Shown here: piece after piece, positions 3,024 to 18,644 of the stretch
How positions within the stretch are numbered: the first letter of the stretch is position 1
How the letters are laid out: each line of letters starts with the position of its first letter
Assembly: GCA_001777665.1 (NCBI GenBank)
Contig: MFEQ01000006.1
Coordinates: 128,880 to 192,879 of the forward strand
Direction: 5' to 3'
DNA from: Candidatus Doudnabacteria bacterium RIFCSPHIGHO2_02_FULL_42_25
GTDB taxonomy: Bacteria > Patescibacteriota > Doudnabacteria > UBA920 > O2-02-FULL-48-8
Length of the DNA: 64,000 bases
Position numbers and translations under genes: made by a program
Notes under the pieces: model-generated
Database searches by the model: none
Told to the model about the DNA's origin: nothing
What the model saw: only the letters and a program-made list of their open reading frames with translations

Positions 3024-3066
3024 GTGGATCCCGGATCGCCCGTTGTGGCGTCCGGGATGGGGTTAA
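3024..3066. repeat. GC-rich REP-like hairpin repeat (copy 1), 3' of EamA gene
   Basis: gatcccggatcgcccgttgtggcgtccgggatggggttaaac is a near-identical reverse complement of 4908-4950. Internal hairpin cccgga...tccggg. Confidence 0.6.
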
Positions 3067-4001
3067 ACCGTCCGGGCTTCTGCTTCAACCACTTTCTCGC
3101 TGATTTCTGTTTCGTTGACAATCGTGAGACGAGTAATGGCAAATAACAATATCAAACCTCCGACGATTTGCATGCCCGACAATGTCGCACCCAAAAAAAT
3201 CCAGTTCACGAGTACAGCAGCCAGAGGAAAAGCCAATTCACACAAAGTCGCGACAGATGCTTTCGTCGATTTCAAACCATAGTAATAAATAAGCAGTGAT
3301 ACAAATCCAGCTATAATCGCTGTCATGAACACATAAAACCAATCTTTTGATGATGCAGTCGTGATCTGATTTAAAGTACCATAGTAAATGTTCATGAAAA
3401 ACAAAAATATTAGCGCTGATATAAATCTCAAACTCGTCATCATCTGGAAACTAGCTTTGCGCAAAACATAACGTCCAAACACGGTAGATCCACCCCAGAA
3501 AAATGCTGCACCGAGAGCCAAGACAACACCAATCATGTTTGAATCCCAGGTAAATCCTGTTGGCTTCAAATTTGGGAAAGAAATTACGTATGCCCCAAAA
3601 ATTGCGACTATTGCCCACATCCAAAAATTCTTGGACAATCTTTCACCCAAAACAAAAGTTGCTAACCCAATGGCAATCAAGGGCTGCAATTTTTGAAGGA
3701 GAATCGCAACTGTCGGGTTTAGATAATGAAAACTTTGTGTAAATAAAACAGTAGCCAGTGCCGAACCTCCGAAACCGATAAATAATACCGAGACCCATTC
3801 GCGCCCAGATAAATTTTTCAGTTCAGATACTCTCGGGATGAATAGAAATAATACCAAAACTGCAATCAAAATATGCTCCATCAAAACAATTGCAGTCGAA
3901 GACAAATCTGTAGTTAGAAATTTCCGAAACGGAGCATCTATCGCCCAAAGCACTGCGGCCAGAGTCACAAACCAAGGACCCATATTATTTAATTTATTCA
4001 T
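3063..4001 (-). CDS. EamA/DMT-family transporter (10 TM)
   Basis: 312 aa with two EamA-like halves and ~10 hydrophobic helices. Confidence 0.75.
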   Translation of the reverse strand: MNKLNNMGPWFVTLAAVLWAIDAPFRKFLTTDLSSTAIVLMEHILIAVLVLFLFIPRVSELKNLSGREWVSVLFIGFGGSALATVLFTQSFHYLNPTVAILLQKLQPLIAIGLATFVLGERLSKNFWMWAIVAIFGAYVISFPNLKPTGFTWDSNMIGVVLALGAAFFWGGSTVFGRYVLRKASFQMMTSLRFISALIFLFFMNIYYGTLNQITTASSKDWFYVFMTAIIAGFVSLLIYYYGLKSTKASVATLCELAFPLAAVLVNWIFLGATLSGMQIVGGLILLFAITRLTIVNETEISEKVVEAEARTV

Positions 4002-4238
4002 AAAAAATAAAATGCCTTATTTCAGGGCATTGGCAAAAAACACAAGCCTTCTTTCATCCAGACTATACTGTCGCCCCCGGAATTACACCGGATCATGTCC
4101 CGAATCGGGACTCGCGGGGTTTACCGCCGGTGGGGACATTCTCCCCGCCCTGAAGGTTACTTATTGCTTTTATTATATTTAGTAAATAGTAATTAGTAAA
4201 GAGTAATAAGAATTCTAGCTCTTATTACTAATTACTTC

Positions 4239-4589
4239 TTACTTATTACTCTTAAAGAACTCTCGAGCCATCTTTTCGTCTTCTTTCATCTGCTCTATCA
4301 ACTCTTCTTTGGTTTTGAATTTTATACTCGGCCGTGTTTTTTTGATCAGCTCCACTTCTAGCTCTCGATCATATAAGTTGCCTTCAAAGTCCAAAATATA
4401 CACTTCCACTTTCTGCTTTATTTCTCCAAAAGTTTCTGCGGCCCCGACAAAAACCAAAGAGGGTTTAGTATCGGCCAGCCCGAAATACAATCCGTTCTCA
4501 ATTTCGACAGGAATTTTTAAATTCGCTGTCGGAAAACCCATCTCTTTTCCCCGCCCTTTACCTTTTAACACTTTGCCTTTAAATTTCAT
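4239..4589 (-). CDS. Riboflavin kinase (monofunctional, bacterial RibF C-domain type)
   Basis: GKGRGKEMGFPTANL (PTAN motif) and EVYILDFEGNLYDRELEVEL, the riboflavin-kinase core. Overlaps the upstream gene by 11 nt. Confidence 0.85.
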   Translation of the reverse strand: MKFKGKVLKGKGRGKEMGFPTANLKIPVEIENGLYFGLADTKPSLVFVGAAETFGEIKQKVEVYILDFEGNLYDRELEVELIKKTRPSIKFKTKEELIEQMKEDEKMAREFFKSNK

Positions 4590-4896
4590 GGAGCTTTGTT
4601 ACATTAATTACGGGTTCCTCGTATGGATGCGCCGCTCTGACTCTCTCAATTAAATCTTTAAGATATGCCTCACCGACCACTGTTTCAATCCGCTCTTCTT
4701 CAACTTCTTCCAGCTTCCCGACTTCTCCAATTGTAGGGTTTGCTCCAGCTAGCGGTCGAAATCGTCCGACACCGCGCACAGAAAATGAACAAAAATCATA
4801 ATTCCCGATTTTACCACCACCCGCTTCTCCCATGACTTGCCGAATCTTATCAGCTTCCTCCACTGGAACATAAACGATAACTTTGTACTTACTCAT
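4579..4896 (-). CDS. Small PII-like fold protein (NIF3-insert / COG3323-like)
   Basis: 105 aa. MSKYKVIVYVPVEEADKIRQVMGEAGGGKIGNYDFCSFSVRGVGRFRPLAGANPTIGEVGKLEEVEE...AHPYEEPVINV resembles the PII-like insert domain of NIF3/YqfO proteins. Family assignment is from memory only. Confidence 0.5.
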   Translation of the reverse strand: MSKYKVIVYVPVEEADKIRQVMGEAGGGKIGNYDFCSFSVRGVGRFRPLAGANPTIGEVGKLEEVEEERIETVVGEAYLKDLIERVRAAHPYEEPVINVTKLHEI

Positions 4897-4907
4897 TTGT
4901 GCAATTC

Positions 4908-4950
4908 TCCGTTAACCCATCCCGGACACCACGAAGGGTGATCCGGGATC
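4908..4950. repeat. GC-rich REP-like hairpin repeat (copy 2, inverted), between ribL stop and next start
   Basis: Reverse complement reads gatcccggatcacccttcgtggtgtccgggatgggttaac; compare 3024-3066. Confidence 0.6.
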
Positions 4951-4967
4951 TATTACATCAATTAATA

Positions 4968-5381
4968 CTAATTGTTTCTCTTCTTTCTCATTATACTGCT
5001 CTTAAACCTATCTGGTCTAAACGCCTTCAGTCTCACCACTTTAGTCTTTAATCCATTTCTATGCAATTGAACCTTCAAATTTTTTATGTAGTCTCGTTGG
5101 TCGTAGCCTAATGCTATAACGTCTGGCTTTTCTTTTTGAATATGATCCATCGGATTTTTTAATGCTCCCAGTATTACTTTTTTGGCAATTTTCAAATCTT
5201 TCACATGCTTCAATCGTAACTTTTCACTAAAGACCGGACTAAATCCTTTTGTCTTTTTGACATTCACGTCTCGCGCTATTGAAACAATCAAATAATTTCC
5301 AAGCTTCTTCGCTTGTTTCAAAAATGAAATATGACCAGGATGTAATAAATCAAAAACCCCAAACACCATTACCTTTTTCAT
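4968..5381 (-). CDS. ribL: Archaeal-type FMN adenylyltransferase (RibL-like cytidylyltransferase-fold FAD synthetase)
   Basis: MKKVMVFGVFDLLHPGHISFLKQAKKLGNYLIVSIARDVNVKKTKG...ALGYDQ is collinear with M. jannaschii RibL ([41 protein letters not shown]...LGPDQ) as recalled. H.GH nucleotidyltransferase motif. Sits in an operon with the riboflavin kinase. Confidence 0.7.
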   Translation of the reverse strand: MKKVMVFGVFDLLHPGHISFLKQAKKLGNYLIVSIARDVNVKKTKGFSPVFSEKLRLKHVKDLKIAKKVILGALKNPMDHIQKEKPDVIALGYDQRDYIKNLKVQLHRNGLKTKVVRLKAFRPDRFKSSIMRKKRNN

Positions 5382-5455
5382 CTTGACAAGTCTCCAAAAT
5401 CTGTTATAATAGTATCAATCACGATGAGCGGGCACACCTAAGGTTCGTCCGAAGG

Positions 5456-5950
5456 TTACTCCCGCTCTTTTAATTTGCTTAGCTTATTTTCTAAATTTGA
5501 AACAAAAATAAAATATCTTCGAAACCTTCTTAGCAGAGCCGAGAATTTTCTCGAATTTGGTATGAATAATTTTAATAGTTTTTCCTGCTTCTCTAAATAT
5601 TCAATTAAACAGTGGAAATCGCCATCACCAGTAACAATAATTGCCTTATCATAATTAGGGTATTCAATCATAGAGTGAAGAACTAGCTCAGCATCAACAT
5701 TTCCTTTCGTGAATCTTTCACCTTCCTTTTTGTATTCCAAAGTTGGCTTGAAAACTAACACGTATCCAATTTTTTGCAAATAAGTATACAGTGCTTCGTT
5801 CCCAGCAACGTATCCTATAAATAAAAAGGTTTTGCTGACTTTATATTTATCTTTTAAATAAATGAAAAATCTACTGAAATCCAAGGTCCAGCCGCTATCT
5901 TTAATTGCTAAATTTAAATTTTGACTATCAATGAACGCGTAGATTTTCAT
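5456..5950 (-). CDS. NYN/LabA-like PIN-fold domain protein
   Basis: 164 aa. MKIYAFIDSQNL...AIIVTGDGDF pattern of NYN (LabA) domains. Confidence 0.65.
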   Translation of the reverse strand: MKIYAFIDSQNLNLAIKDSGWTLDFSRFFIYLKDKYKVSKTFLFIGYVAGNEALYTYLQKIGYVLVFKPTLEYKKEGERFTKGNVDAELVLHSMIEYPNYDKAIIVTGDGDFHCLIEYLEKQEKLLKLFIPNSRKFSALLRRFRRYFIFVSNLENKLSKLKERE

Positions 5951-6180
5951 ATACTCTTTTTACGCTTTCAAATTCTCGTAAGGATACTATTTCTTTTGCT
6001 TTCCAACGCAAACTCCAACCCATTTTATTTGGCTTACATAAAGCACAGGAATGTTTTTTGATTTTATACCGCTTCCGCATTAATTAACTATAGACAATTA
6101 TCCAACAACAATCAACACTTTTAGAAATTAGGTCCAATTAGCCTGCCCGCCAAAGCTTCAGCGACGACGGGATTAATTAG

Positions 6181-6370: not shown

Positions 6371-6850
6371 ATGCTCAAGGCTTACATTGTCACACACGGT
6401 AAACGGTACGATGGTGCCAATCCTCGCATGACACCGGAAGGGTTCGCGAAAGTCGCGAGCCAGCGTTCCAAGCTTCCGGCTACACCCTCTGAAGTCGTCG
6501 TCGGAACGGGCGATCGGCATATCGAGGTTTGCGATGCGGTCGATCTCGAACCGACCCGATACTCGGCTGTCATCGGTGGTGCCGAAGCACTCGACTCCGT
6601 GAAGCACGACGGCGAGGATATGATCGTTCTGCCCGGTGGCAAGATGATTCCCTACCACATGGACACAACCGAGAAGGATTTGGGTCCGTCCATGAGAGCG
6701 CTTGTCCTCGGGCTGAAAGACGACGCGGTCTTGTGCTCGGGTCGTCTCAGTGTGATCGCCCTCGGGCTGACGCTCGAAGAATCGAAATCGGGTGTCGTCT
6801 ATCTCGTCGAGCACGACGGGGTACAGATCTTCACTATCAGTGAAGTCTAG
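6371..6850 (+). CDS. GC-rich histidine-phosphatase (PGAM/SixA-like) family protein, divergent
   Basis: 159 aa. N-terminal YIVTHGKRYDG corresponds to the RHG catalytic-His motif (R replaced by T). Homologous in layout to 9619 and 16454 genes. Strongly GC-rich versus flanks; all other frames also open. Confidence 0.5.
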   Translation: MLKAYIVTHGKRYDGANPRMTPEGFAKVASQRSKLPATPSEVVVGTGDRHIEVCDAVDLEPTRYSAVIGGAEALDSVKHDGEDMIVLPGGKMIPYHMDTTEKDLGPSMRALVLGLKDDAVLCSGRLSVIALGLTLEESKSGVVYLVEHDGVQIFTISEV

Positions 6851-6926: not shown

Positions 6927-8384
6927 CTAAATTTTTTTGACTATTCCCTTGTTTGTATCTAACTCAACTAAATCTCCATCCTTAAAAATCGACGTTGCTA
7001 TTCTTGTTCCTATTATCGAACTGATGCCTAACTCACGGCTTACTATGGCCGCGTGACAAGTCAATCCACCTTCATCTGTCACAACAGCCGCGGCCTTACG
7101 CATTGCTGGCACGAAATCTGGTGAAGTCATTGCCGTCAAAAGAATTTCTCCTTTTTTCATTTTAGATGCTTCTGCAGCGGTTAACATTCTTCTAATCCTA
7201 CCTTTCAGTATAGATTTGCTACCGACGCTCCCCACGATCCCTTTCACTTCATTAGCTTTGCTGATCTTTTCTGTATATTTTGAAAGATGCTGTTTCGCTT
7301 TCTTTCCAATTATAACTTCCAATATTTTTCCATTTTTTGAATTTACAAAAATAACGTTGTTAATCCGTTTTCTGGCCAAATCTTTTAAAATATTCATTTT
7401 CTTTTTCTTTGTTAAAAGATTAATTTCAACCAAATCCAGATATTTTAATTCTTTTAAAGTTAGCTGAGTCTGCTTTGAAATATTTCTCAATAACAAATCT
7501 ACGGCATAGTGAATTCGGAAATGAACACTTTTTCTCTCGTCAGCAGTTGTGATAAGAGTCTGGACAGTATTAATCAATCTTCTATATTTATTTAACTCAT
7601 ATTCATTAATTGTATTTTTTTGTTCTTTGGCTAACTCAAAGTTTTCCAAAAGTATTTTATCAATTTTCGATTTCAACCATTTTTTGTTTTTAACTTCCAA
7701 TGATGTGAGCGTGTCCTCAAAATACTGATTGTCCCAGTATAATGGGCCATCGTAACCAAACGGAATCCATCCAAATTTATCAGATAAATTTCGAGCTAAT
7801 TTTTTCTTATTCTTTCCAGATTTGACGGCAAGAGCTGATTTGTAACGCGCAAGCTCCTCCTGAGTGGTTAAAGAAAGAGTTCTGGGAAGAAATAGTCGAA
7901 CAATTTTTACTCTAGGAATATTCAGTTTTTCCAATTCCAAATATAAATAGTCTTTTAAAGCTTCTGCTCCCACAAACCATGGCAAGGTGTTTATTCGATC
8001 ATATTTAAACCAAAGTTTTTGTAAATAAAACAAAGACTTGATAGATTTCGTTAATGTAAAATTTCCAGTTTTTAATTGTTCAAGAAATGTTAAGACGGCT
8101 TTTTCTAATGCTTGTCCTGTTTTTAACTGGTCCCTATGTATTCGAGAAAAGTAGTTCGGATGATGAATAAAATATCTTAATAAGTGTTGAGCTATTTTAT
8201 TCCACTCCTTTTGTTCATAAATCCAAATCCCCTTACCATCTTCAAAGAATAAGACATCGCAGTTAAATTTAATCCCGTGAATTTTTAGCATCTCGGGATG
8301 ATTTTTAGAAATAGTATTCCAGACCGAGGGGAGATAATCTATATTTCTCGCTCGAGGAATTAAATATCCTTTTTTGGGTAGCAT
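6927..8384 (-). CDS. Swivel-domain paralog A: divergent N-terminal domain + PEP-utilizing-enzyme mobile (phosphohistidine) domain
   Basis: 485 aa. C-terminus GEILLTAMTSPDFVPAMRKAAAVVTDEGGLTCHAAIVSRELGISSIIGTRIATSIFKDGDLVELDTNKGIVKKI matches PF00391 (GG.TSHAAI.ARE.G.P...G). Confidence 0.8.
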   Translation of the reverse strand: MLPKKGYLIPRARNIDYLPSVWNTISKNHPEMLKIHGIKFNCDVLFFEDGKGIWIYEQKEWNKIAQHLLRYFIHHPNYFSRIHRDQLKTGQALEKAVLTFLEQLKTGNFTLTKSIKSLFYLQKLWFKYDRINTLPWFVGAEALKDYLYLELEKLNIPRVKIVRLFLPRTLSLTTQEELARYKSALAVKSGKNKKKLARNLSDKFGWIPFGYDGPLYWDNQYFEDTLTSLEVKNKKWLKSKIDKILLENFELAKEQKNTINEYELNKYRRLINTVQTLITTADERKSVHFRIHYAVDLLLRNISKQTQLTLKELKYLDLVEINLLTKKKKMNILKDLARKRINNVIFVNSKNGKILEVIIGKKAKQHLSKYTEKISKANEVKGIVGSVGSKSILKGRIRRMLTAAEASKMKKGEILLTAMTSPDFVPAMRKAAAVVTDEGGLTCHAAIVSRELGISSIIGTRIATSIFKDGDLVELDTNKGIVKKI

Positions 8385-8385
8385 A

Positions 8386-9486
8386 CTATTTTATCTTCCT
8401 CACAATCCCCTTATTTGCATCAACTTCAATAAAATCTCCATCTTTAAAAACTTTTGTAGCAATTTGTGTTCCAATTACACAAGGTTTCTTCATTTCACGA
8501 GCTGTAATCGCAGCATGAGATAAAATCCCACCTGCATCAGTTACAAATGCTGCCGCCTTATGCATGATCGGCAAAAACTCTGGTCTGGTCGCCCCTGTAA
8601 CCAGAATACTTCCTGGTTTAAAATCTTTAACTTTACTTGGATCTAATACAATTCTTACTTTTCCCGTAACTTTTCCCGGGAAGGCTATTGCCCCTTTAAG
8701 TTCTGATTTTTTCGAGGTTTGTTTTAGTAATCTTTCTATTTTAGAAATATCTGGACCAATTAGGAACTGAAACGAATCTTTTTCTCTTATTAAAACTGCT
8801 CCTGCGTCTCTTTTCTTCAGTTCGAGTTTGTTGGGTAATTTCCTTTTATTAAAATAATCATTTACTTCTTCTTTAATTAAACAAAGTAACAACTGATAAG
8901 AATACTTAGTTTCTTTACTCAGTAGTTTAACAAATCGAATCATAAAATCTTCTGTGCGGTTCAAAACTGGCTCAGCAGTTAGTCTGGCTTCTTGTAAACT
9001 TGGTAAATACTGTTTCAAGAGATCTGGATGCAAATAATCAACAACATACTTCACATTGATATGGGGATGATAGTATGCCAATACTCTTTTCCAAAATTCA
9101 TCATATAACGTTTTTGTAATTAGTCTGCCTTCGTATTGATCTATGAATTTCAAAATACCTTTAGCTTGAAATTTTAATTTATTCGCAATAACCTTAGCCT
9201 CCTTAGGATTCTTTACAATTCTTTGCGCTAGATAATTTCCCAATCGATCGCGATCAGATTGTCTCATCCATCCATTACTGCGCCCGTGAGATATAAAAAT
9301 GATTGATTGGGATTTGAATGGTTTTCCGCCAAACAAAAGTTCTTTGGTGTATTGTTGGATAAAATGCGTGCTCGTTAAAAAACTCCACCGACCATCGTAG
9401 ATTTTAGTCCAATCCTCGTGTTTAAACGATTTGATATTCATGCTACTAATTATGCCAGATAGCGCTATTATTGACAAAAGCGCCAA
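8386..9486 (-). CDS. Swivel-domain paralog B (short class)
   Basis: 366 aa. ...VTDAGGILSHAAITAREMKKPCVIGTQIATKVFKDGDFIEVDANKGIVRKIK. N-terminal region homologous to paralogs C and F. True start may be the internal ATG at 9441. Confidence 0.8.
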   Translation of the reverse strand: MALLSIIALSGIISSMNIKSFKHEDWTKIYDGRWSFLTSTHFIQQYTKELLFGGKPFKSQSIIFISHGRSNGWMRQSDRDRLGNYLAQRIVKNPKEAKVIANKLKFQAKGILKFIDQYEGRLITKTLYDEFWKRVLAYYHPHINVKYVVDYLHPDLLKQYLPSLQEARLTAEPVLNRTEDFMIRFVKLLSKETKYSYQLLLCLIKEEVNDYFNKRKLPNKLELKKRDAGAVLIREKDSFQFLIGPDISKIERLLKQTSKKSELKGAIAFPGKVTGKVRIVLDPSKVKDFKPGSILVTGATRPEFLPIMHKAAAFVTDAGGILSHAAITAREMKKPCVIGTQIATKVFKDGDFIEVDANKGIVRKIK

Positions 9487-9499
9487 ATTGTGCTATTAT
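9471..9499 (+). promoter_or_regulatory. sigma70-type promoter of GC-rich cassette 2
   Basis: TTGACA(9471-9476), 17 bp, TATTAT(9494-9499). Same tattgacaaaag context as cassette 1. ~120 nt leader. Confidence 0.6.
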
Positions 9500-9618
9500 G
9501 GATAGTTTATAATAGTTCTTTTTAAGGTATGAGTCTGTGTTTGGCTTTAATTTTTTAAAACTAGTCTCGGGCTCATACCAATAACTCACCTAACAGTTCA
9601 ACCTCGAATCAGGAGACG

Positions 9619-10233
9619 ATGATGAGAACAGTGACGTTTTATTGTATGCGGCATGGCCACCGACTCAAGGGTGGCGACGAACTCAGTAAACTGGGCTACA
9701 AGCAGGTCGAGGCATCGGCGAAGGAGCACCTCAGCGGCATCAACTTCGTCGCTACCTTCAGCAGTGGGATGCATCGAGCAAACCAAAGCGCGGCCCTGAT
9801 CCTCGGAGCGCTAGGAATTACTGAGCTGTATGTGCAGCGCGAAGAAGGTTTCAGCTTTGAATGGTTCTGGTCTGATCCTAACATGCCGAAGGTCGAGATG
9901 CTGAACTACGCGACGATCGGCGAGTACTTCGACAACATGTTTCCGCTGGCGTTTGCGACCAGAGGTCGCGTGATGCAGACGCTGTTGCATCTGGCGTCCA
10001 GCATCGTGGCCTGGTCCGGTGCCGACCGTGAAGGTCCTCTCAATGTTCTCGTCGTTTCCCATTCCCCGACGATCGACACGGCAGTACCGGAGCCGAAGGG
10101 CTTCCCGCGACTGAAGGAAGCAGACATCTGCGTCTATAACGTCTCCGTCGACGACCAGGGTCACTCAACCATCGAAAGCGCTCGCTACCTCTCGGCGCCG
10201 AAAGTCGAAGAGAACGATACAGCGAAGGTCTAG
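9619..10233 (+). CDS. GC-rich histidine-phosphatase (PGAM/SixA-like) family protein
   Basis: 204 aa. FYCMRHGHRLKGG (RHG catalytic motif), SSGMHRANQSAALI (second Arg region), VLVVSHSPTID (C-terminal His). GC-rich. Confidence 0.7.
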   Translation: MMRTVTFYCMRHGHRLKGGDELSKLGYKQVEASAKEHLSGINFVATFSSGMHRANQSAALILGALGITELYVQREEGFSFEWFWSDPNMPKVEMLNYATIGEYFDNMFPLAFATRGRVMQTLLHLASSIVAWSGADREGPLNVLVVSHSPTIDTAVPEPKGFPRLKEADICVYNVSVDDQGHSTIESARYLSAPKVEENDTAKV

Positions 10234-10270
10234 TCGAACGTGAGTCACACTCAAGGAGGGTGTGCGAATC

Positions 10271-10326
10271 AAAAAGGCGATCGGCCGAATTCCATTGTGG
10301 AATTCCCGCTCGCCTTTTGCTTTTGT
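10271..10326. terminator. Bidirectional terminator after cassette 2 / paralog C
   Basis: aaaaaggcga...(gaattccattgtggaattc)...tcgccttttgcttttg. Confidence 0.55.
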
Positions 10327-11364
10327 CTAAATTTTTCTAACTGTGCCCTTATTCGCATCTACTTCTACCGAATCTCCGTCTTTTAGAACTCTAGTAGCAT
10401 ACTTAGTTCCTACTATACATGGTTTCTTCAACTCACGGGCAGAAATTGCAGCATGTGAAAGCATACCTCCCGCATCTGTTACAAAAGCGGCAGCTTTTCT
10501 CATTAGCGGCAAAAATTCTGGCCTCGTCATTCCGGTGACTAAAATATCTCCTTTTTTAAACCCTTTTGATTCTTTAGGATCAAGTATAACTAAAGCCTTA
10601 CCCTTTACTAATCCTGGAAATGCTGGTTGACCCTTTATCTCCTCTCCTGTTTTTTCTATGCTTTTTTCAAATTTATCTGAATCTCTGCCCACTTTAAGCT
10701 GAACTAATCCATTCCTGTAAATAATAGCGCACGACTTATATCTACTCGCCAATTCCTTTTTTGCTGGAAGGTTCCCAGTTTTCCAGTACTGATCAATCTC
10801 CTCACGCGTGACATATAAAACATGTTCTTTCTTGTAGCGAGTCTTTGTTGCGATTTGCTTTGCCATTAATTCCATGAATTTTTCTGTTTCGGCAAAAACA
10901 GGTTCTGCATATAACCGCGCCTTTTGAAGCTGCGGCAAGAATTCTTTATACTTAGCGGGAGGCAAACTATCAACAACCACCTTCACTACACGATGTGGGA
11001 CGCAGTACTCATAAAGATATTTAACAAATTTATTATAGTCTTCAGCATCTATAGTTTTCTTTCTTGAAGTGACATTGATAAAATTTAGAATCTGATCGGT
11101 TTTAGCAATTAAATCCTGGGTCCAATGCAGTAGTTGTCGTTTATTCGTTACAATTTTATCAGCCAAATACTGACTGAATTTTTTATAGTTACCCGCGTTG
11201 AGATAACAAGTACTGTAACCAGAATGAGAAATGAATATCGCTCTATCAAAACCATACCCCAAAGACTTTTTGAGTAGTTTAGTATATTGATAACCGAGAT
11301 GGGAGTTATTAAGTAATTTCCAATGCCCAGCCCAATGTTTTATCCATTCTTCTCGATTACTCAT
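10327..11364 (-). CDS. Swivel-domain paralog C (short class)
   Basis: 345 aa. ...VTDAGGMLSHAAISARELKKPCIVGTKYATRVLKDGDSVEVDANKGTVRKI. N-terminus aligns with B along its length. Confidence 0.8.
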   Translation of the reverse strand: MSNREEWIKHWAGHWKLLNNSHLGYQYTKLLKKSLGYGFDRAIFISHSGYSTCYLNAGNYKKFSQYLADKIVTNKRQLLHWTQDLIAKTDQILNFINVTSRKKTIDAEDYNKFVKYLYEYCVPHRVVKVVVDSLPPAKYKEFLPQLQKARLYAEPVFAETEKFMELMAKQIATKTRYKKEHVLYVTREEIDQYWKTGNLPAKKELASRYKSCAIIYRNGLVQLKVGRDSDKFEKSIEKTGEEIKGQPAFPGLVKGKALVILDPKESKGFKKGDILVTGMTRPEFLPLMRKAAAFVTDAGGMLSHAAISARELKKPCIVGTKYATRVLKDGDSVEVDANKGTVRKI

Positions 11365-11367
11365 TTT

Positions 11368-12246
11368 TTATGTCAGGTCTAATGCTTCTTTATCTTTAAT
11401 TATTTCATCAATCAATTCCGGAGTTAGCTCCCACTGTTGATCTTTATATTTCAAGACTATATCAGTGCCTGTTTCATCCCCAACCAAATCAAGACTAAAC
11501 CCTTCGCTGAATCCAAACCCATTTTTATCTGGTAAGGACTCTATAAATTTCATAACATCGTCTCGCCCCTTTGTCTTTTCGATGACTTTCATTAAAAAAC
11601 TTTCAGTGACCGTAGCATGAGAACCCAAAAATCGTTGTAATTCATTTTGAAATTTAAGATATTTATCTGGATTGTCAGCAACTAACCGCTGAAAGTTAGG
11701 TAAAATTTCTAAATATCTCCTTACTATCTCTGCAATTCCTGCCGCTTGTCTGCTATAACTGGTGGAGGAATGATCTTTAAGTTTTCGAACAAGATCGTCG
11801 CTTTCTTCTACAGCAAATAATAAATAATCTTTTTTATTTACATAATGATCCATAGCTGCATCTTTAAATTCACCCTCCCAAACAAAATTCAATCTTTCGT
11901 CTACCATGTCCTTTCTTCCAACTTTCACCGATCCGGCCACCAACTCTTTGATGTCTTCAAGAGTTGTATCTTCTCCGATTTCGGGTTGGTCAGCCAACAT
12001 CTGGCGCATCGCGGTTTCCACAGAACGTTCACGGGAGGATCCGAATGCCACAGCCACTTCAGGATTGGGATTTTTTTCTTTGCCTACTTCGGATGCATGT
12101 TTTCTTCCTTTTTCTGTTAAACGCACTGTGGTATCGGGTTGCCCTTCTGCAGCCTTAGCTTTATCATCATGCCTAAAAAATTCCAAATGAATCGAAGCTT
12201 TGGGTAATGACTCTCGACTTTCACGACCTAAATCTCTTGTTTCCAT
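11368..12246 (-). CDS. AT-rich, in-line histidine-phosphatase-like protein (divergent)
   Basis: 292 aa. EFFRHDDKAKAAEG (RH. motif), VAFGSSRERSVETA (second Arg). Native codon usage, same strand as the array. Confidence 0.45.
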   Translation of the reverse strand: METRDLGRESRESLPKASIHLEFFRHDDKAKAAEGQPDTTVRLTEKGRKHASEVGKEKNPNPEVAVAFGSSRERSVETAMRQMLADQPEIGEDTTLEDIKELVAGSVKVGRKDMVDERLNFVWEGEFKDAAMDHYVNKKDYLLFAVEESDDLVRKLKDHSSTSYSRQAAGIAEIVRRYLEILPNFQRLVADNPDKYLKFQNELQRFLGSHATVTESFLMKVIEKTKGRDDVMKFIESLPDKNGFGFSEGFSLDLVGDETGTDIVLKYKDQQWELTPELIDEIIKDKEALDLT

Positions 12247-12259
12247 ATATTTTTATTAA

Positions 12260-13744
12260 TTATCTTAATTTTCGCACAATTCCATTGTTCGCGTCCACCT
12301 CCACCATATCGCCATCTTTAAAAACTCGAGTTGCCACTTTAGTTCCTATAATGCAGGGAATTTTTAGTTCCCTTGAAATAATTGCAGCATGTGAGGTAAT
12401 TCCACCTTCATCGGTAACAATAGCCGAGGCCTTATTCATGGCGGAAATCATTTCTGGTCTAGTCATAGAAGCTATAATTATGTTTCCCTTTTTCATCTTT
12501 TTCATATCTTGAAAAGTAAGAATGACCTTTACTGTCCCTTTTGCGATACCAGTTGAAGCCACCATCCCGGAAATCTTTTCTAATGAATTCGAAGTTTTGG
12601 GATAAATTAACTTCTTTAATTTTTTAGCATCTGGTCCTTCATAAACAAAAATACCTGAACCACGAGTAGCCACTACTGCACTTGCTTGTTTGCGCTTTTT
12701 AATCAAAACTTTCAATTTTACTTTATCGAGAGATATTAATTGAGGTAATTCATCAATATAGGTATATTTCATCTCCTCAAAAGAAATTTTTAAACGAGAT
12801 GAATATTCTTTCATAAATAAACCGATTATATTGTTAGACATCATTGAGTACTTTTTTCTTTCGTCCTGCATATAAGCAAACGCTTCTACCACTCTTATTA
12901 AAGTCTTTGACCAGCTATCTAGCTTGAGCTTTTTAATTAGGTCTTTTTTCTTTGTACCACTCTTTCTAAGTTGATATTGAGTATTTTCAATTGCCACCTT
13001 AGCCTTTTGAAGAGTTAATTTATTCAGTTGTTGACCAAAGTAAGTCGCATCCAACCAAGGAATATATGCATAATTACTATGAATCCAAAAATATTTCTTA
13101 GAATGCTCTTTGAGTAGTGATTGTTTGAGTTTTGGGTCTGTTTTTTTTAATTTTATTTTTGCTAAGTCAAGGGCTTCTGCTTTAACAAAAGATAAGTTCA
13201 CCGGCTGGATAAGAATAGTATAAAGCTCTATAAAACGATTTTTGTAGCCAAGCGAAGAAATTACTTTATCAAAATGAGGAACCAAAAATTCCTCGGTTGT
13301 CATCGTAAATGGGTCCTGGATGGCTATTCCATAACTAAATTCTTCTCCGTAAGCATCATCAAATTTTTTGTAAAATTCAAATAATTCTTGATTTGAAAGC
13401 TTTTTTAAATCTATACGAATTACCCTCGCAATAACCCTATCTAAGATTATTACTTTCTCTTCCCAAATATCGACTAATTTGTCTAAATATTTAGGATTTG
13501 CCTTCAACTTTCTTATAAACAAATCTCTTATTCTAACCGAATCCTCATAACACCAACTCCATTCTCCATGTTCCTTACTATCAAAAAAATCCATAATTAC
13601 ATTATGGGAAGTACCAAAAAACTTACGAAACTCGAAAGCCGCTCTATGCACTGGATAGTGGAAATGTAAAACACCGTGATAACCTTTTCTAAACCAGTTT
13701 AGTTTGTTTAACCCATATTTCTTAACTAATTGTGCCGGCTTCAT
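12260..13744 (-). CDS. Swivel-domain paralog D (long class)
   Basis: 494 aa. ...VTDEGGITSHAAIISRELKIPCIIGTKVATRVFKDGDMVEVDANNGIVRKLR. Overlaps E by 4 nt. Confidence 0.8.
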   Translation of the reverse strand: MKPAQLVKKYGLNKLNWFRKGYHGVLHFHYPVHRAAFEFRKFFGTSHNVIMDFFDSKEHGEWSWCYEDSVRIRDLFIRKLKANPKYLDKLVDIWEEKVIILDRVIARVIRIDLKKLSNQELFEFYKKFDDAYGEEFSYGIAIQDPFTMTTEEFLVPHFDKVISSLGYKNRFIELYTILIQPVNLSFVKAEALDLAKIKLKKTDPKLKQSLLKEHSKKYFWIHSNYAYIPWLDATYFGQQLNKLTLQKAKVAIENTQYQLRKSGTKKKDLIKKLKLDSWSKTLIRVVEAFAYMQDERKKYSMMSNNIIGLFMKEYSSRLKISFEEMKYTYIDELPQLISLDKVKLKVLIKKRKQASAVVATRGSGIFVYEGPDAKKLKKLIYPKTSNSLEKISGMVASTGIAKGTVKVILTFQDMKKMKKGNIIIASMTRPEMISAMNKASAIVTDEGGITSHAAIISRELKIPCIIGTKVATRVFKDGDMVEVDANNGIVRKLR

Positions 13745-15138
13745 TTAATTTTCCTTACCATTCCTTTACTTGTATCTACTTCGATCCTGTCACCATTTTT
13801 AAAAATTGTGGTAGCAATTTTGGTTCCAACTATACATGGCACGCCTAGCTCTCTGGAAACTACCGCGGCATGGGACATTAATCCGCCAACGTCAGTAACA
13901 ATCGCTTTGGCTTTACGCATGAGTACAATATAATCCGGTTCAGTCATGGTAGTAATAAGAACTTCACCAGCTTTCATTTTTTCAGGATTACGAGCTGATA
14001 ACATAATTCTGGCCCGACCTATCACTAAAGGTCCTCGGCTGACGGTAATTCCTGTGACACTACCCTGATTCACGTTATTTCGAGTTTGATACTTTTTGGC
14101 GATTTTCGCTGCTGCTCTACCGGTCAGAATCTTGTATTCTTTATTCTTCATCGAGATAACACAAAGTTTTTTTCTCTGATTTATTTCATCATTAGAAAGT
14201 TTTTTTCCAGTGGTATCCAGATCCACCCATTCTTCAGCAGTGTAATATTGTAAATCATTAAGAGATATTCGATATTTTCGGCTAGTCAGCCGAAGCAAGT
14301 TATCAATCTTGTAAAGCGTTCGCCAAACTTCCGCCTTACGATCATCCTGCCACCAGATAGAAAAAGATAAAATCTCTGCCTGATTGATCACAGATTTAGG
14401 TAACTTAAATTTCTTAATAATGTCAGCTTTTCTTTTCTTAACACTCTTTATGTAATTTTCAATTTTTTGTATTTCGAATTTTAACCGTTTTTTATTCAGG
14501 CCTTTCAATCTCTGATAAAAGTCATTTCTAGTCAGTCTTCTGGTTTCGTAATAACTATTTTCAATCCATCCCCAGTTTTGACTATGTTTTTCTAATAATG
14601 TCGTCAGACTTTTTTTATTTCTGGCTCTTAGTCCAGCTTTAAATAATTCTAAATCTGATTCCTGATGGAAGCTCGGTCGATCCAAAGCTAAGAGCGCTTC
14701 CAATACTTCATCCAAATTGTTTTTCGGAACAAATTTACGGATTTGATTTCTTAGAAATACTGGAGCGCTATAATTGGCAGTTTCTGGGATTAATGCAATA
14801 TTCCAAAATTGTATGAATTTATCATAAAGTTCCTTAACAGATTCAGATTGGAACTGATTTAATTCTTTTTTTGCTTTCATATAAACTTTCCAAACTTGTC
14901 TTCTTATCTGTGCAGGTAACAGCCATCTTTTAATAATCTGCAATCCGTGACGTTCGACAGCTACTTTATCCCAACGATAAGTTAATCGATCATGATCTAA
15001 TATTCCAAAGGTCCCTGGCCAAAAAATATCATAAGAGTTCAATTTTCCTGCCCAAGGCAATATAAAAAAAGAATGATACAAAATCTTTGAATCAATCGGC
15101 CCCCACTGTTCCAGTTCTTTCGAAATTGCTCTACTCAT
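13741..15138 (-). CDS. Swivel-domain paralog E (long class)
   Basis: 465 aa. ...VTDVGGLMSHAAVVSRELGVPCIVGTKIATTIFKNGDRIEVDTSKGMVRKIK. Confidence 0.8.
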   Translation of the reverse strand: MSRAISKELEQWGPIDSKILYHSFFILPWAGKLNSYDIFWPGTFGILDHDRLTYRWDKVAVERHGLQIIKRWLLPAQIRRQVWKVYMKAKKELNQFQSESVKELYDKFIQFWNIALIPETANYSAPVFLRNQIRKFVPKNNLDEVLEALLALDRPSFHQESDLELFKAGLRARNKKSLTTLLEKHSQNWGWIENSYYETRRLTRNDFYQRLKGLNKKRLKFEIQKIENYIKSVKKRKADIIKKFKLPKSVINQAEILSFSIWWQDDRKAEVWRTLYKIDNLLRLTSRKYRISLNDLQYYTAEEWVDLDTTGKKLSNDEINQRKKLCVISMKNKEYKILTGRAAAKIAKKYQTRNNVNQGSVTGITVSRGPLVIGRARIMLSARNPEKMKAGEVLITTMTEPDYIVLMRKAKAIVTDVGGLMSHAAVVSRELGVPCIVGTKIATTIFKNGDRIEVDTSKGMVRKIK

Positions 15139-15141
15139 TAT

Positions 15142-16275
15142 TTATTTAATCTTTCTCACTATCCCCTTATTCGCATCTACTTCGACTCTGTCGCCGTCTT
15201 TTAAAAGCTTAGAAGCTAATTTGGTTCCAGTAATACAAGGTATTTTCAGCTCGCGGGAAACAATCGCTGCATGACACGTAATACCCCCTTCATCAGTAAT
15301 GACAGCTTTTGCTTTTTTCATTATCGGAACAAAAAAAGGATTGGTCATTACTGTGACTAAGATATTGCCAGGTTTGAAATTATTAATTTCTTCATTTTTC
15401 AAAATGATCGAAACTGTTCCTTTAATCGAAGCTGGCCCTCGAGATGAGACAGATCCTACAATTTGGTTATGGGTAGTGCCTTTTTCGGGCAAATATTCAA
15501 AACCTTTCTTTTTAAAGAAGGTTTCTCTGGAGACTCCGGTAAAAACTGCTTTGCCAAAAAATATATAACCTTTTAATCTTGAGTGAAGCTCTTTTCGATT
15601 AGGAGAGAATGTTTGATCCGTAAGCATTTTCTCCAATTCTTTGAATGTAATGAAAGCAGAATACTTTGTCGATAAATTTCTCTTTTGCAAAAGCTCATGT
15701 CCTATACTCCGCCAATATTCAACAAGCTCCTCAATGACTCCTTCAGAGACATGTCTTGCATGTATCAATCTTTTCAAAATTTCTTTGGCTTGTTTTGGAT
15801 ATTTCTTATGAATTTCTGGAGCCCATTGATCTTGGGGTAGTAAATAACTCGCAGTATACCACGGATACATTTCTGCGACATAAATTTTTAATTTTTTGAA
15901 CCTTCCATGATCTTTAAAATTTTTATCCTTGTTCGCATTTTGAAGTAACTTTCTAATTTGTTTCGTAAGAAAGATATATCTTTTAATTCTTTGCTCGCTT
16001 AGCACACTAAGTTTGGAGTTAGCCACAGCTTTTATAAACGCTTTGGACTCTTTCGTCAATCGATAAGTTTCTAGCAATCGTCCATTGTAAACCGAAAGTT
16101 GATTTGGAACACCAGTGCCAAAAACTTCAATAAGCCTAGGATTCATATGGACTGACCACCATTCTGCCCACGCTAGTGTAAAATCACGCGTCCAAGCTAA
16201 TTTAATTTCCTTTTTCATGGTTTTATTATGACAAATAACCCCACCTATTGACAAATTGGCTAAAATGGTGTACAA
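15142..16275 (-). CDS. Swivel-domain paralog F (short class)
   Basis: 377 aa. ...ITDEGGITCHAAIVSRELKIPCITGTKLASKLLKDGDRVEVDANKGIVRKIK. By homology to B/C, the start is probably MKKEIKLAW at 16218. Confidence 0.8.
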   Translation of the reverse strand: MYTILANLSIGGVICHNKTMKKEIKLAWTRDFTLAWAEWWSVHMNPRLIEVFGTGVPNQLSVYNGRLLETYRLTKESKAFIKAVANSKLSVLSEQRIKRYIFLTKQIRKLLQNANKDKNFKDHGRFKKLKIYVAEMYPWYTASYLLPQDQWAPEIHKKYPKQAKEILKRLIHARHVSEGVIEELVEYWRSIGHELLQKRNLSTKYSAFITFKELEKMLTDQTFSPNRKELHSRLKGYIFFGKAVFTGVSRETFFKKKGFEYLPEKGTTHNQIVGSVSSRGPASIKGTVSIILKNEEINNFKPGNILVTVMTNPFFVPIMKKAKAVITDEGGITCHAAIVSRELKIPCITGTKLASKLLKDGDRVEVDANKGIVRKIK

Positions 16276-16276
16276 T
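16248..16276 (+). promoter_or_regulatory. sigma70-type promoter of GC-rich cassette 3
   Basis: TTGACA(16248-16253), 17 bp, TACAAT(16271-16276). ~175 nt leader to ATG 16454. Confidence 0.55.
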
Positions 16277-16453
16277 TGATCGTTATAATTAAGTATTTAT
16301 AAATGCCGCAAGGCGTGAATAAATCGATTGTAACTTGTGTACCTTACAATCTAATGGTATGGGTTTATGCCTCAAGTTCTCAAGAGGACTTTGGACACGA
16401 ACCCATACCAAGATCTCAACTACTCACGTTCCACTTTCGTTCTGGAGAGCGAC

Positions 16454-17047
16454 ATGAAAACTCTGACCTATCGGCGCCATTCTTTGAAGGATGGCCACTA
16501 CATCAGCAAGGCTGGCATCGAACTGGCTCGGGATGAAGCTGAGGTGTACGAGAGCAGGCCGGACGCCGTGGAATTCAGCTGCGTTTTCCACGGACCATTC
16601 GTTCGTACTGCTCAGACCGCCCTCGCCTTCTGCTGCGCACTGACAGTGACGCCGCCGGACGCAATGCCGATCATCGAAGAAATCGGCAACGACGCGATCG
16701 TCGCTCTCATCGTCAACGATGCATTCAAGGCTGCGGTCGCCAAGGGCGAGTCCAACTATCAGGCGACCGTCTCGTCCCACAGTGCAACGGAGCTCAGCGA
16801 CCTCTCACGGACGGCGATGGCAGCGGTGACCAAGATGTTCGATGCGATGAAAGACAAGAACGACGTCGGAATCGCGTTTGGTCACAGCCCGATCATCGAG
16901 CTGGCTGTATGCAACATGTCCGGCCTGCCCGACGGCTGGAATGAGCTCAATGAGATGGATGGGCTGGTCCTCGAACAGGATGACGCCGGTCAGATTCGCG
17001 TCGTGGAGCTCATCCGCGCGAACCGCGAGCAGCCGGCGACGGCGTAG
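16454..17047 (+). CDS. GC-rich histidine-phosphatase (PGAM/SixA-like) family protein
   Basis: MKTLTYRRHSLKDGHY (RHS), HGPFVRTAQTALAF, IAFGHSPIIEL. Start moved from track ORF 16367 to the ATG at 16454, which has a ggagag SD; the GC shift begins here. Confidence 0.65.
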   Translation: MKTLTYRRHSLKDGHYISKAGIELARDEAEVYESRPDAVEFSCVFHGPFVRTAQTALAFCCALTVTPPDAMPIIEEIGNDAIVALIVNDAFKAAVAKGESNYQATVSSHSATELSDLSRTAMAAVTKMFDAMKDKNDVGIAFGHSPIIELAVCNMSGLPDGWNELNEMDGLVLEQDDAGQIRVVELIRANREQPATA

Positions 17048-17078
17048 TAGAGATCACCCCCGTAAGGGGCACAACCGC

Positions 17079-17127
17079 AAAAGGCGGGCATTTCCAGGTC
17101 AATATGACTGGACTGCCCGCCTTTTTT
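17079..17127. terminator. Bidirectional terminator after cassette 3 / paralog G
   Basis: aaaaggcgggca...tgcccgcctttttt. Confidence 0.6.
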
Positions 17128-17147
17128 CATTGTTATGTTTTTATCGT

Positions 17148-18644
17148 TTATAACTTTCGAACGATACCCTTATTTGCATCCACTTCGACTTTGTCACCAT
17201 CTTTTAAAACCTTCGTTGCTATTTTGGTACCAATAATGCACGGGGTGCCTAGCTCGCGAGAAACAATTGCTGCATGAGAAGTAATGCCGCCTTGTTCAGT
17301 AATAATTGCCGCAGCTTTTTTCATCGCAGGTACTACATCAACATCTGTAGCGATACTAACCAAAATATCGCCTTGTTTCATCTTCGGCATGTCCTTTGCC
17401 CTGATGATTATTTTCACGGTTCCTTTTGCATAACCAGGTTGAACGGTTTGGCCTGTAAATTCTTTTACATTTTTATTGATCTTCGTGGCTACCATTGATC
17501 TCAACTTTTTTTCCATTGCTCCCATGTATACAGTTTCAAAACCCTCTTCAGTATAAAGGACACAATGTTTTAATCTTATAGACAAAATATTTTTATCTAT
17601 CCTGCCATTTAATAAAGCATCTTTGACTTCTGCTTGAAGCATAAATTGGAGTTGATACCTAGAAATTCCAAGACGTTTTGCAATTTCCTTGAGTAATGTT
17701 TTATGAACAAAATATAAATTTAAAAGCTGGGCGTTTCTGCGAATTAGTTTTGACAACGCAAAATCTTTGGCGTTTTCGAAAAGCCTTTTATATTGCACAG
17801 AGACTTTTAATTTTTTATAGATCTTTTTCTGCTTCTCTCTAGCGGTTTTCAAGTATTGTTCTTGCTTTGCCAATATTTTCTTGGTATTGATTCCTGTTTT
17901 CGCTAATTCGAATAATTCTTTGAGATAGTGATCCACTCCAAAGGGATCAACATTCCCAGCGTAAATGTAGCCGAGATGACCCCATTTTTGCGCATGCTTA
18001 GTTAGGGCATCTTTCAAATGCTGAGGTATAGTTCTCGCTTTAAGAAATTTTTTGTATTTCTCATGAATAACTAGGAAATCTTTCCGCTCATCGGCGACGA
18101 TAGTTTTCCTTGAGGGCGTAGTTAAAACAACAAATGCCTGTTCTGCCTCTTCTTTACTGTTACTAACTGCGTATAAATAGCTCTTTAATTTATTCGTGAA
18201 ATTATTATGAAATAAGTCTGCGGCAACCGGTATCCACCCATAGGTATAAAGTTTGGTCTGAAGCTTATCGGTATCCTTGTACAATTTCCAAAGCTGCTTA
18301 TTATTATATTTCTCAAGCGGTAACTTATCTAATTTCTTGGAAAACAAAATTAACTTATGGGACCAAGAAATAATGTTTCTATCCAGTTCTTTACCGAATT
18401 TAGGTCTTTCTAGCAATGCTCTTATAATTGATTCAGCAACTTCATTGGAGTCTTTTTCTCCAACATAAAAATCCAAAGTAAAACCTTTGTATAGTCCCAA
18501 GAACTTTTTGTATCTTTTTATAAAATCGTAACTCCAATCAGAAGCAAAACAAGAGGCCGGGACTTGGAAAAAATAAATATCGCAATCCGGAATATTTTCT
18601 CCAAAAAGCCACTTGTCCTTATCAAACAATAACTTCGGCTTCAT
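17148..18644 (-). CDS. Swivel-domain paralog G (long class)
   Basis: 498 aa. ...ITEQGGITSHAAIVSRELGTPCIIGTKIATKVLKDGDKVEVDANKGIVRKL. Overlaps H by 4 nt. Confidence 0.8.
   Translation of the reverse strand: MKPKLLFDKDKWLFGENIPDCDIYFFQVPASCFASDWSYDFIKRYKKFLGLYKGFTLDFYVGEKDSNEVAESIIRALLERPKFGKELDRNIISWSHKLILFSKKLDKLPLEKYNNKQLWKLYKDTDKLQTKLYTYGWIPVAADLFHNNFTNKLKSYLYAVSNSKEEAEQAFVVLTTPSRKTIVADERKDFLVIHEKYKKFLKARTIPQHLKDALTKHAQKWGHLGYIYAGNVDPFGVDHYLKELFELAKTGINTKKILAKQEQYLKTAREKQKKIYKKLKVSVQYKRLFENAKDFALSKLIRRNAQLLNLYFVHKTLLKEIAKRLGISRYQLQFMLQAEVKDALLNGRIDKNILSIRLKHCVLYTEEGFETVYMGAMEKKLRSMVATKINKNVKEFTGQTVQPGYAKGTVKIIIRAKDMPKMKQGDILVSIATDVDVVPAMKKAAAIITEQGGITSHAAIVSRELGTPCIIGTKIATKVLKDGDKVEVDANKGIVRKL

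Follow-up and report, generated by a model that had tools for sequence, protein, structure and literature searches.

A predicted riboflavin salvage and FAD-synthesis module pairing a RibL-type enzyme with a bacterial-type riboflavin kinase in Candidatus Doudnabacteria

How do bacteria of the Candidate Phyla Radiation (CPR, or Patescibacteria), to which the Doudnabacteria belong, come by their FMN (flavin mononucleotide) and FAD (flavin adenine dinucleotide)? In 2015, Nelson and Stegen described Parcubacteria as lacking riboflavin synthesis, ribK, ribL and ribF, riboflavin transporters and FMN riboswitches, yet retaining flavoenzymes (PMC4508563). With rib genes, transporters and riboswitches all reported missing from CPR genomes, the source of FMN and FAD had been left open. 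Here we describe a minus-strand locus of a groundwater bacterium with a very small genome, within 64 kb of contig MFEQ01000006.1 of Candidatus Doudnabacteria bacterium RIFCSPHIGHO2_02_FULL_42_25 (the whole stretch analysed, hereafter the window), in which a gene for a 137-amino-acid (aa) nucleotidyltransferase of the RibL type is followed by genes for a small PII-like protein, a riboflavin kinase (RFK) and an EamA-type transporter, the last of them directly behind an FMN riboswitch (Table 1). Judging from sequence and synteny, positions 3063-5381 probably form a module for riboflavin salvage and FAD synthesis, and as such would give one CPR lineage a complete, self-consistent and testable route to FMN and FAD.

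An earlier note on this DNA, made from the letters alone, had read positions 4239-5381 as a hybrid FAD-biosynthesis operon of three open reading frames (ORFs), all of which were recovered on the minus strand to the nucleotide. The functional unit reaches beyond them, as the downstream FMN riboswitch and transporter gene, which the note had missed and which provide the strongest evidence at the locus, belong to it. In the pathway that we propose, the EamA transporter would import riboflavin, the 116-aa RFK would turn riboflavin and ATP into FMN, and the 137-aa enzyme would convert FMN to FAD by adenylylation, while the riboswitch in the leader of the transporter mRNA would lower transporter expression when FMN is plentiful. 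The RibL-type enzyme would stand in for the FMN adenylyltransferase (FMNAT) domain of the bifunctional RibF, a non-orthologous displacement by an enzyme of archaeal type. We hold this model as a whole with good confidence, including its prediction that ribL, the PII-like gene and the RFK gene make up one transcription unit. The proteins are all 100% identical to database entries from metagenome-assembled genomes (MAGs) of Candidatus Doudnabacteria bacterium whose names begin with RIFCSP (NCBI phylum label Doudnaibacteriota), the 137-aa protein to NCBI entry A3I07_00455.

The 137-aa protein matches Pfam profile PF01467 (E = 2e-18, residues 6-133) and carries at residues 14-17 an HPGH motif that is invariant in the family alignment. 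Over 129 aa, and thus nearly its full length, it is 45% identical (E = 7e-34) to the RibL of M. jannaschii (MjRibL; MJ1179, KEGG K14656), a query verified by exact look-up as Q58579 / WP_010870692, 'FAD synthase'. The two are collinear, single-domain proteins of ~140 aa with a cytidylyltransferase fold and an HxGH motif, and their structural matches agree: the best PDB match of the window protein is the archaeal T. volcanium entry 3glv, in a full-length alignment (E = 3e-26), the runners-up, ethanolamine-phosphate cytidylyltransferase (ECT, E = 9e-15) and glycerol-3-phosphate cytidylyltransferase (TagD, E = 3.5e-11), align at the N terminus only, and MjRibL as query returns the same ranking with 3glv first. 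B. subtilis TagD, in an unverified sequence, aligned only to the first 46 residues, around the HxGH motif. In a neighbour-joining tree of 88 sequences and 136 columns, which carries no bootstrap support and shows family cohesion rather than direction of transfer, the protein falls in a Doudnabacteria clade inside a tight RibL cluster that also holds MjRibL, 3glv and sequences from DPANN archaea and the CPR, and a long branch parts this cluster from TagD. The note's reading, in which an adenylyltransferase of the archaeal RibL type takes over from the N-terminal domain of RibF, is upheld, and the protein is with high probability a RibL-type FAD synthase that would replace the FMNAT domain. Its relatives already bear the names FAD synthetase or FAD synthase in IMG and NCBI.

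Could the protein instead be one of the other small nucleotidyltransferases, such as a glycerol-3-phosphate cytidylyltransferase, an ADP-heptose synthase domain, an archaeal-type phosphopantetheine adenylyltransferase (PPAT) or a nicotinamide mononucleotide adenylyltransferase (NMNAT), with its place beside the RFK gene a coincidence and FAD made by another enzyme or imported? Its top NCBIfam match is indeed rfaE_dom_II (69.9 bits), followed by g3p_cytidyltrns (46.6 bits), PDB entry 3glv was deposited as a 'lipopolysaccharide core biosynthesis protein', and flavin-related neighbours are missing from 79 of the best 80 homologous loci. Both scores, however, lie far below their cut-offs (181.5 and 165.4 bits), and MjRibL produces the same sub-threshold pattern (83.8 and 57.9 bits), from which we conclude that these matches reflect the superfamily and not a rival assignment; the glycerol-3-phosphate cytidylyltransferase, ADP-heptose synthase and PPAT assignments were rejected on these grounds. 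As neither the window protein nor MjRibL passes any Pfam or NCBIfam equivalog cut-off, both databases seem to be without a RibL-specific model. Full-length identity to MjRibL, set against N-terminal-only matches to TagD, ECT and CCT, together with a gene order with RFK that is kept in about eight distinct loci, makes a different nucleotidyltransferase highly improbable, and a glycerol-3-phosphate or ADP-heptose cytidylyltransferase, which the earlier note had considered as a possible better homologue, was not found to be one.

Two properties that the note had attached to RibL did not carry over. It had described RibL as air-sensitive, and air sensitivity of MjRibL is ascribed to its two C-terminal cysteines (PMC11423594). 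These residues, to which metal ligation has been attributed as well, are not present in the 137-aa protein, which, like five Doudnabacteria relatives, contains no cysteine at all, a feature found in 38 of the 88 family members examined; air sensitivity was accordingly discarded as a transferable property. In Entamoeba, a cysteine-less homologue that shares 41% identity with MjRibL works as an ATP-specific FAD synthase (PMC11423594), so the missing cysteines count against air sensitivity and not against function, and the window protein probably behaves like the Entamoeba enzyme rather than like that of the methanogen. The note had also taken RibL to be essentially archaeal. In contrast, a scan of GTDB species genomes (pattern and tblastn searches from the RibL alignment) yielded at least 576 confirmed matches, most of them of CPR or DPANN origin. 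The best 80, at 44-57% identity, come from DPANN archaea and from CPR lineages that include Kerfeld-, Paceibacter-, Nomura-, Sacchari-, Magasanik-, Curtiss- and Peregrinibacteria. The spread of RibL-type genes across many CPR and DPANN genomes adds another archaeal-type enzyme that is common to both.

The kinase partner is equally clear in its family. The 116-aa protein matches the Flavokinase profile PF01687 over positions 6-124 of 124 (E = 5.3e-31; 107.9 bits against a gathering score of 19.6), contains GKGRGKEMGFPTAN with the GxGRG...PTAN motif, and aligns with the RFK modules of the T. maritima and C. ammoniagenes RibF proteins (PDB 1mrz and 5a88), keeping PTAN and the glutamate of VEVYILDF. 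A Pfam and NCBIfam scan found no FAD_syn domain (PF06574) in it, and the RibF models of NCBIfam align to it with no more than their C-terminal third (profile positions ~170-320), scoring far below cut-off. Its closest relatives are monofunctional proteins of 118-138 aa, and its UniRef label is 'riboflavin kinase'. By its profile matches, it is a stand-alone RFK of the bacterial/eukaryotic type, as the note had proposed. It is homologous to the C-terminal module of bifunctional RibF (PF06574 plus PF01687) and would serve the same pathway output, whereas FAD_syn is missing and the adenylyltransferase has a gene of its own, drawn from another nucleotidyltransferase family. The pairing also departs from the archaeal RibL pathway, in which the kinase is the CTP-dependent RibK and not an ATP-type PF01687 enzyme, and MjRibL itself differs from the window protein in being archaeal as well as in its two C-terminal cysteines. 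Similar in kind, by its published description, is EhFADS of Entamoeba histolytica (EHI_198800), the non-archaeal, cysteine-less RibL homologue mentioned above, which acts together with a PF01687-family RFK and is regarded as an archaeal-type FAD synthase gained by lateral transfer (PMC11423594); unlike the Doudnabacteria gene, it is eukaryotic and has no operon, no riboswitch and no PII-like partner.

The module could be real and yet redundant, a transferred accessory salvage route in a genome that holds a canonical ribF, riboflavin biosynthesis, or both, elsewhere. The inspected 64 kb belong to a genome with contigs of up to 413 kb, and transporters and biosynthesis co-occur in many bacteria (PMC4418817). 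Against this, the RFK is itself a stand-alone protein, all 19 retrieved relatives of it are monofunctional bar one 199-aa fragment, CPR genomes are reported to be without rib biosynthesis and ribF (PMC4508563), and no ribF was found within the 64 kb of the window. A six-frame motif scan of the window likewise yielded no second nucleotidyltransferase of the FD.LH.GH type and no second convincing PTAN kinase, the two other matches to P[TS][AIL]N being due to chance. We consider redundancy quite unlikely.

An Rfam scan of the window detected the FMN riboswitch RF00050 over its full model (positions 1-138) at 98.3 bits, against a gathering score of 66.2 (E = 1.5e-21). It sits in the 238 nt that separate the stop codon of RFK from the start codon of EamA, the aptamer ending 40 nt before the latter. 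Orthologous riboswitches that satisfy the gathering score (74-106 bits) lie upstream of the EamA gene in seven relatives (L002, L082, L085, L171, L086, L094 and L114; loci and contigs are given by L and P numbers), and an eighth, in L173, was detected by nhmmer. In L083/L084 (6862-7279 and 8374-9002), RFK and EamA are separated by a degenerate riboswitch that falls below the Rfam gathering score (nhmmer E = 4e-4), and a MazE/PIN toxin-antitoxin pair lies between EamA and MscL. The EamA protein itself matches PF00892 in two stretches (E = 1e-41) and no NCBIfam equivalog above cut-off, giving only generic sub-threshold DMT matches. A transporter gene behind an FMN riboswitch is the classical mark of a riboflavin importer, and several such transporters, among them RibN (annotated in the DMT family) and ImpX, have been verified by experiment (PMC4418817, PMC10012899). 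From the riboswitch directly upstream of the gene we infer, by analogy with these proteins, both the substrate and the direction of transport, and predict the EamA/DMT protein to be a riboflavin importer. It shares its position behind an FMN riboswitch with RibN, ImpX, RibU and RibM, and the DMT superfamily with RibN; unlike RibN and ImpX, it occurs in a CPR bacterium and next to flavin-nucleotide enzymes. Reports of RibN are confined to Proteobacteria, and those of ImpX to riboflavin prototrophs (PMC4418817).

Conservation of gene order lends weight to the proposed module. The cluster is kept among the closer RibL relatives (62-79% identity), whose loci were retrieved one gene at a time. It takes the form RibL-RFK-riboswitch-EamA-MscL in L082 and L171, RibL-RFK-EamA with the degenerate riboswitch in L083/84, RibL-PII-RFK-EamA in L085 and the P0042 contig (with a riboswitch confirmed in L085 of these two) and RibL-PII-RFK-(278-aa protein)-riboswitch-EamA in L086/87. 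PII-RFK-riboswitch-EamA is found in L094 and L114, RFK stands beside riboswitch-EamA in L173, and a related monofunctional RFK occurs alone in L172. RibL-RFK-riboswitch-EamA is repeated in about eight different loci of Doudnabacteria type, where RibL and RFK keep their order with genes that overlap or adjoin. The most stable pairing is that of RFK with riboswitch-EamA, which RibL joins in the Doudnabacteria clade; the PII-like gene is an optional insertion, present in about six of these operons and absent from three (L082, L171 and L083/84). The 278-aa protein, which has a hydrophobic N terminus and no Pfam or NCBIfam match, is encoded between RFK and the riboswitch in both L086 (5692-6528) and L094 (663-1496).

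Several observations weigh against the proposed pathway. No RFK gene, riboswitch or EamA gene lies within 6 kb of RibL in 79 of the best 80 GTDB loci, L002 being the only one with the PII-like gene, RFK, EamA and riboswitch beside it; the operon was on this count rejected as a general CPR feature, and the genomic flavin link of RibL-type genes is confined to one clade. In L114, RibL is not adjacent to the remaining genes, and the genes upstream are, as read from their N-terminal sequences, MsrA-, IMP dehydrogenase- and adenylosuccinate synthetase-like. At the window locus, the hairpin and U-tract of the candidate expression platform (Table 1), which may act as terminator or as sequestrator of the ribosome-binding site for the riboswitch, are by themselves not significant against shuffles. 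Finally, MjRibL also accepts CTP, so the product here could include flavin cytidine dinucleotide (FCD).

The solo RibL loci show a neighbour of their own. In 18 GTDB loci of Paceibacteria, Nomurabacteria and Saccharibacteria type, an MFS transporter gene (PF07690) lies downstream of RibL on the opposite strand, starting between 9 nt and ~3.5 kb beyond it (L004, at 5025-6173, L018, L022, L023, L026, L029, L030, L039, L040, L042, L043, L045, L046, L048, L050, L063, L067 and L070). No FMN riboswitch was detected at these 18 loci, and the MFS protein could be a flavin-related transporter or the arrangement mere conserved gene order. Several contigs with RibL genes of CPR or DPANN type (L002, L027, L034, L065, L068, L015, L038, L047 and L058) are titled Methylomirabilota, Gammaproteobacteria, Bdellovibrionales or Methanosarcinales; L002 has the full Doudnabacteria synteny, and mis-binning is likely.

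Where, then, does the PII-like gene fit? Its 105-aa product is a stand-alone YqfO-like protein (COG3323, DUF34 'subgroup D') with an HPYE motif and a CutA/PII-like fold. It shares 44-50% identity with the B. cereus YqfO insert and does not match the Pfam model PF00543 of the canonical PII signal proteins GlnB and GlnK. In motif, size (~105 aa) and fold it resembles other stand-alone YqfO-like proteins and CutA1, from which it differs in being embedded, with probable translational coupling, in a flavin operon. The stop codon of the gene and the start codon of RFK overlap by 11 nt (ATGAAATTTAA), and GGAG precedes the ATG of both ribL and the PII-like gene by ~11 nt, while no Shine-Dalgarno sequence precedes RFK, a pattern consistent with RFK translation being coupled to that of the PII-like gene. 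The earlier note was thus right about a PII-like gene of the NIF3/YqfO-insert kind between RFK and ribL, and about its overlap. In our model, translation of RFK would be coupled in this way, and the YqfO-like protein would be an optional, lineage-specific accessory that partners RFK rather than RibL, binds adenylate or flavin and modulates or assists the kinase, which is the weakest step of the pathway.

The main alternative is that the gene is an unrelated passenger, a generic YqfO-like or CutA-like protein with no part in flavin metabolism, and we give this an even chance. It is missing from the otherwise identical operons L082, L171 and L083/84, and 75 of 80 metagenome loci with homologues of 47-71% identity, in heterogeneous contexts, have no RFK, RibL or EamA nearby; only L094 and L114 among the 80 carry PII-RFK-riboswitch-EamA, on which count a general flavin linkage of the family was rejected, and no one neighbour was common to the loci. 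Outside the clade, homologues from Bradyrhizobium adjoin MFS and CAP genes, and others gyrA, LexA, metallo-beta-lactamase-fold or NUDIX genes. Speaking against a passenger, the gene, wherever it is present, is found directly upstream of RFK, its stop codon overlapping the RFK start codon (11 nt in the window and L086, a few nt in L085, in L114 and on the P0042 contig), the RFK gene of the window has no Shine-Dalgarno sequence, and the PII-RFK pair is kept in L114, where RibL is not adjacent. An accessory of RFK and a passenger are therefore rated roughly even, whereas the more specific proposal of a ligand-sensing or flavin- or adenylate-carrying partner of the kinase is doubtful. Of the note's possible regulatory PII-like subunit, the presence of the gene in the operon stands; the regulatory role stays speculation, because the gene is facultative and elsewhere mostly unlinked to flavin genes.

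Two further features of the YqfO-like family deserve mention. With the stand-alone 'YqfO family' proteins of Bradyrhizobium (P0158, P0165, P0212 and others; L088) the window protein shares 60-65% identity, and such conservation, very high for lineages so far apart, suggests strong constraint or recent transfer. NUDIX hydrolase genes lie within ~1 kb of YqfO-like genes in about ten of the 80 metagenome loci, in two unrelated neighbourhood types (L098, L121, L150 and L161; L145, L147, L149, L151, L158 and L159). The survey of DUF34 that describes the family reports a COG3323-NUDIX fusion in F. nucleatum and mentions flavin nowhere in its text (PMC8469502). This adjacency is a possible hint that the family handles nucleoside-diphosphate-linked compounds. 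If the YqfO-like protein were a ligand-sensing or flavin- or adenylate-carrying partner of RFK, it would offer the first functional handle on a widespread and highly conserved family, and the repeated NUDIX adjacency would suggest that the family has a general role involving cofactors linked to nucleoside diphosphates, FAD for example.

How much of this is new? Every component family is known, relatives are already labelled 'FAD synthetase/synthase' and 'riboflavin kinase' in IMG and NCBI, and the hybrid logic of a PF01687-type RFK with a RibL-type FAD synthase has been shown in Entamoeba (PMC11423594). Our coverage of the literature, which was incomplete, returned no description of a RibL-type FAD synthase in bacteria, and on RibL, FAD synthase or FMN riboswitches in the CPR nothing but the 2015 statement of absence. 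A bacterial operon that joins the hybrid pathway to an importer under riboswitch control and to a YqfO-like gene appears to be undescribed. Such an operon would be a bacterial case of non-orthologous displacement of the FMNAT domain of RibF, an antibacterial target, and its genes would allow direct tests of cofactor salvage in ultra-small symbionts. No other operon context that we found places a stand-alone YqfO-like protein in a defined pathway.

Smaller elements punctuate the locus (Table 1). The spacer between ribL and the PII-like gene folds at -22 kcal/mol (z = -1.9), and its hairpin may have a role in RNA stability or processing. The hairpin behind RFK is strong (-14.5 kcal/mol, z = -3.85, with none of 200 shuffles as good); a terminator scan did not call it, and it is a candidate for the end of the ribL-PII-RFK transcript. 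The sigma-70-like match that follows ends ~10 nt before the riboswitch.

Table 1. Features of the flavin locus in the order of transcription; positions are those of the 64-kb window.
Feature	Position	Strand	Description	Basis
ribL-like gene	4968-5381	-	137-aa candidate RibL-type FMN adenylyltransferase / FAD synthase	
GC-rich 12-bp hairpin in the ribL / PII-like spacer (71 nt)	4919-4949	-	no U-run after	sequence
YqfO-like gene	4579-4896	-	105 aa, CutA/PII-like fold, HPYEEP motif	
Riboflavin kinase (RFK) gene	4239-4589	-	116 aa, Flavokinase type	
AT-rich 11-bp hairpin	4202-4229	-	10 nt past the RFK stop codon	
Sigma-70-like promoter match TTTACT-17-TATAAT	4172-4200	-	consensus scan 10/12, pattern match only	
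FMN riboswitch aptamer (RFN element)	4042-4161	-	Rfam RF00050	
Candidate expression platform	4002-4031	-	6-bp hairpin AAUGCC/GGCAUU then UUUAUUUUUU, abutting AUG	
EamA/DMT transporter gene	3063-4001	-	312 aa, two EamA domains, PF00892	

Downstream of the EamA gene, MscL (2528-2911) follows in the window as it does in most loci of Doudnabacteria type (L002, L082, L171, L085 and the P0042 contig), which is probably conserved gene order without a functional tie to flavins; an M50 peptidase gene (1575-2207) and the genes for S12, S7 and EF-G lie in the vicinity. On the other side, in the spacer between ribL and a gene for an NYN-domain protein (5456-5950, minus strand), a perfect sigma-70 match (TTGACA-16-TATAAT, 12/12, extended TG) occupies 5383-5410 of the plus strand. 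It is directed antisense into the NYN-domain gene with no plus-strand ORF beyond, and may drive an antisense RNA or be a chance occurrence. Further upstream, positions 6927-21039 (minus strand) hold about ten tandem paralogous genes of 345-498 aa, at least six of which match the PEP-utilising-enzyme mobile domain PF00391, and a PPDK_N (ATP-grasp) gene, separate from these, closes the array at 20104-21039. Its run is broken by plus-strand genes at 6371-6850, 9619-10233 and 16367-17047, one of them of the histidine-phosphatase superfamily and two without a Pfam match. A comparable PF00391-type array, an unusual expansion, lies ahead of ribL in L085.

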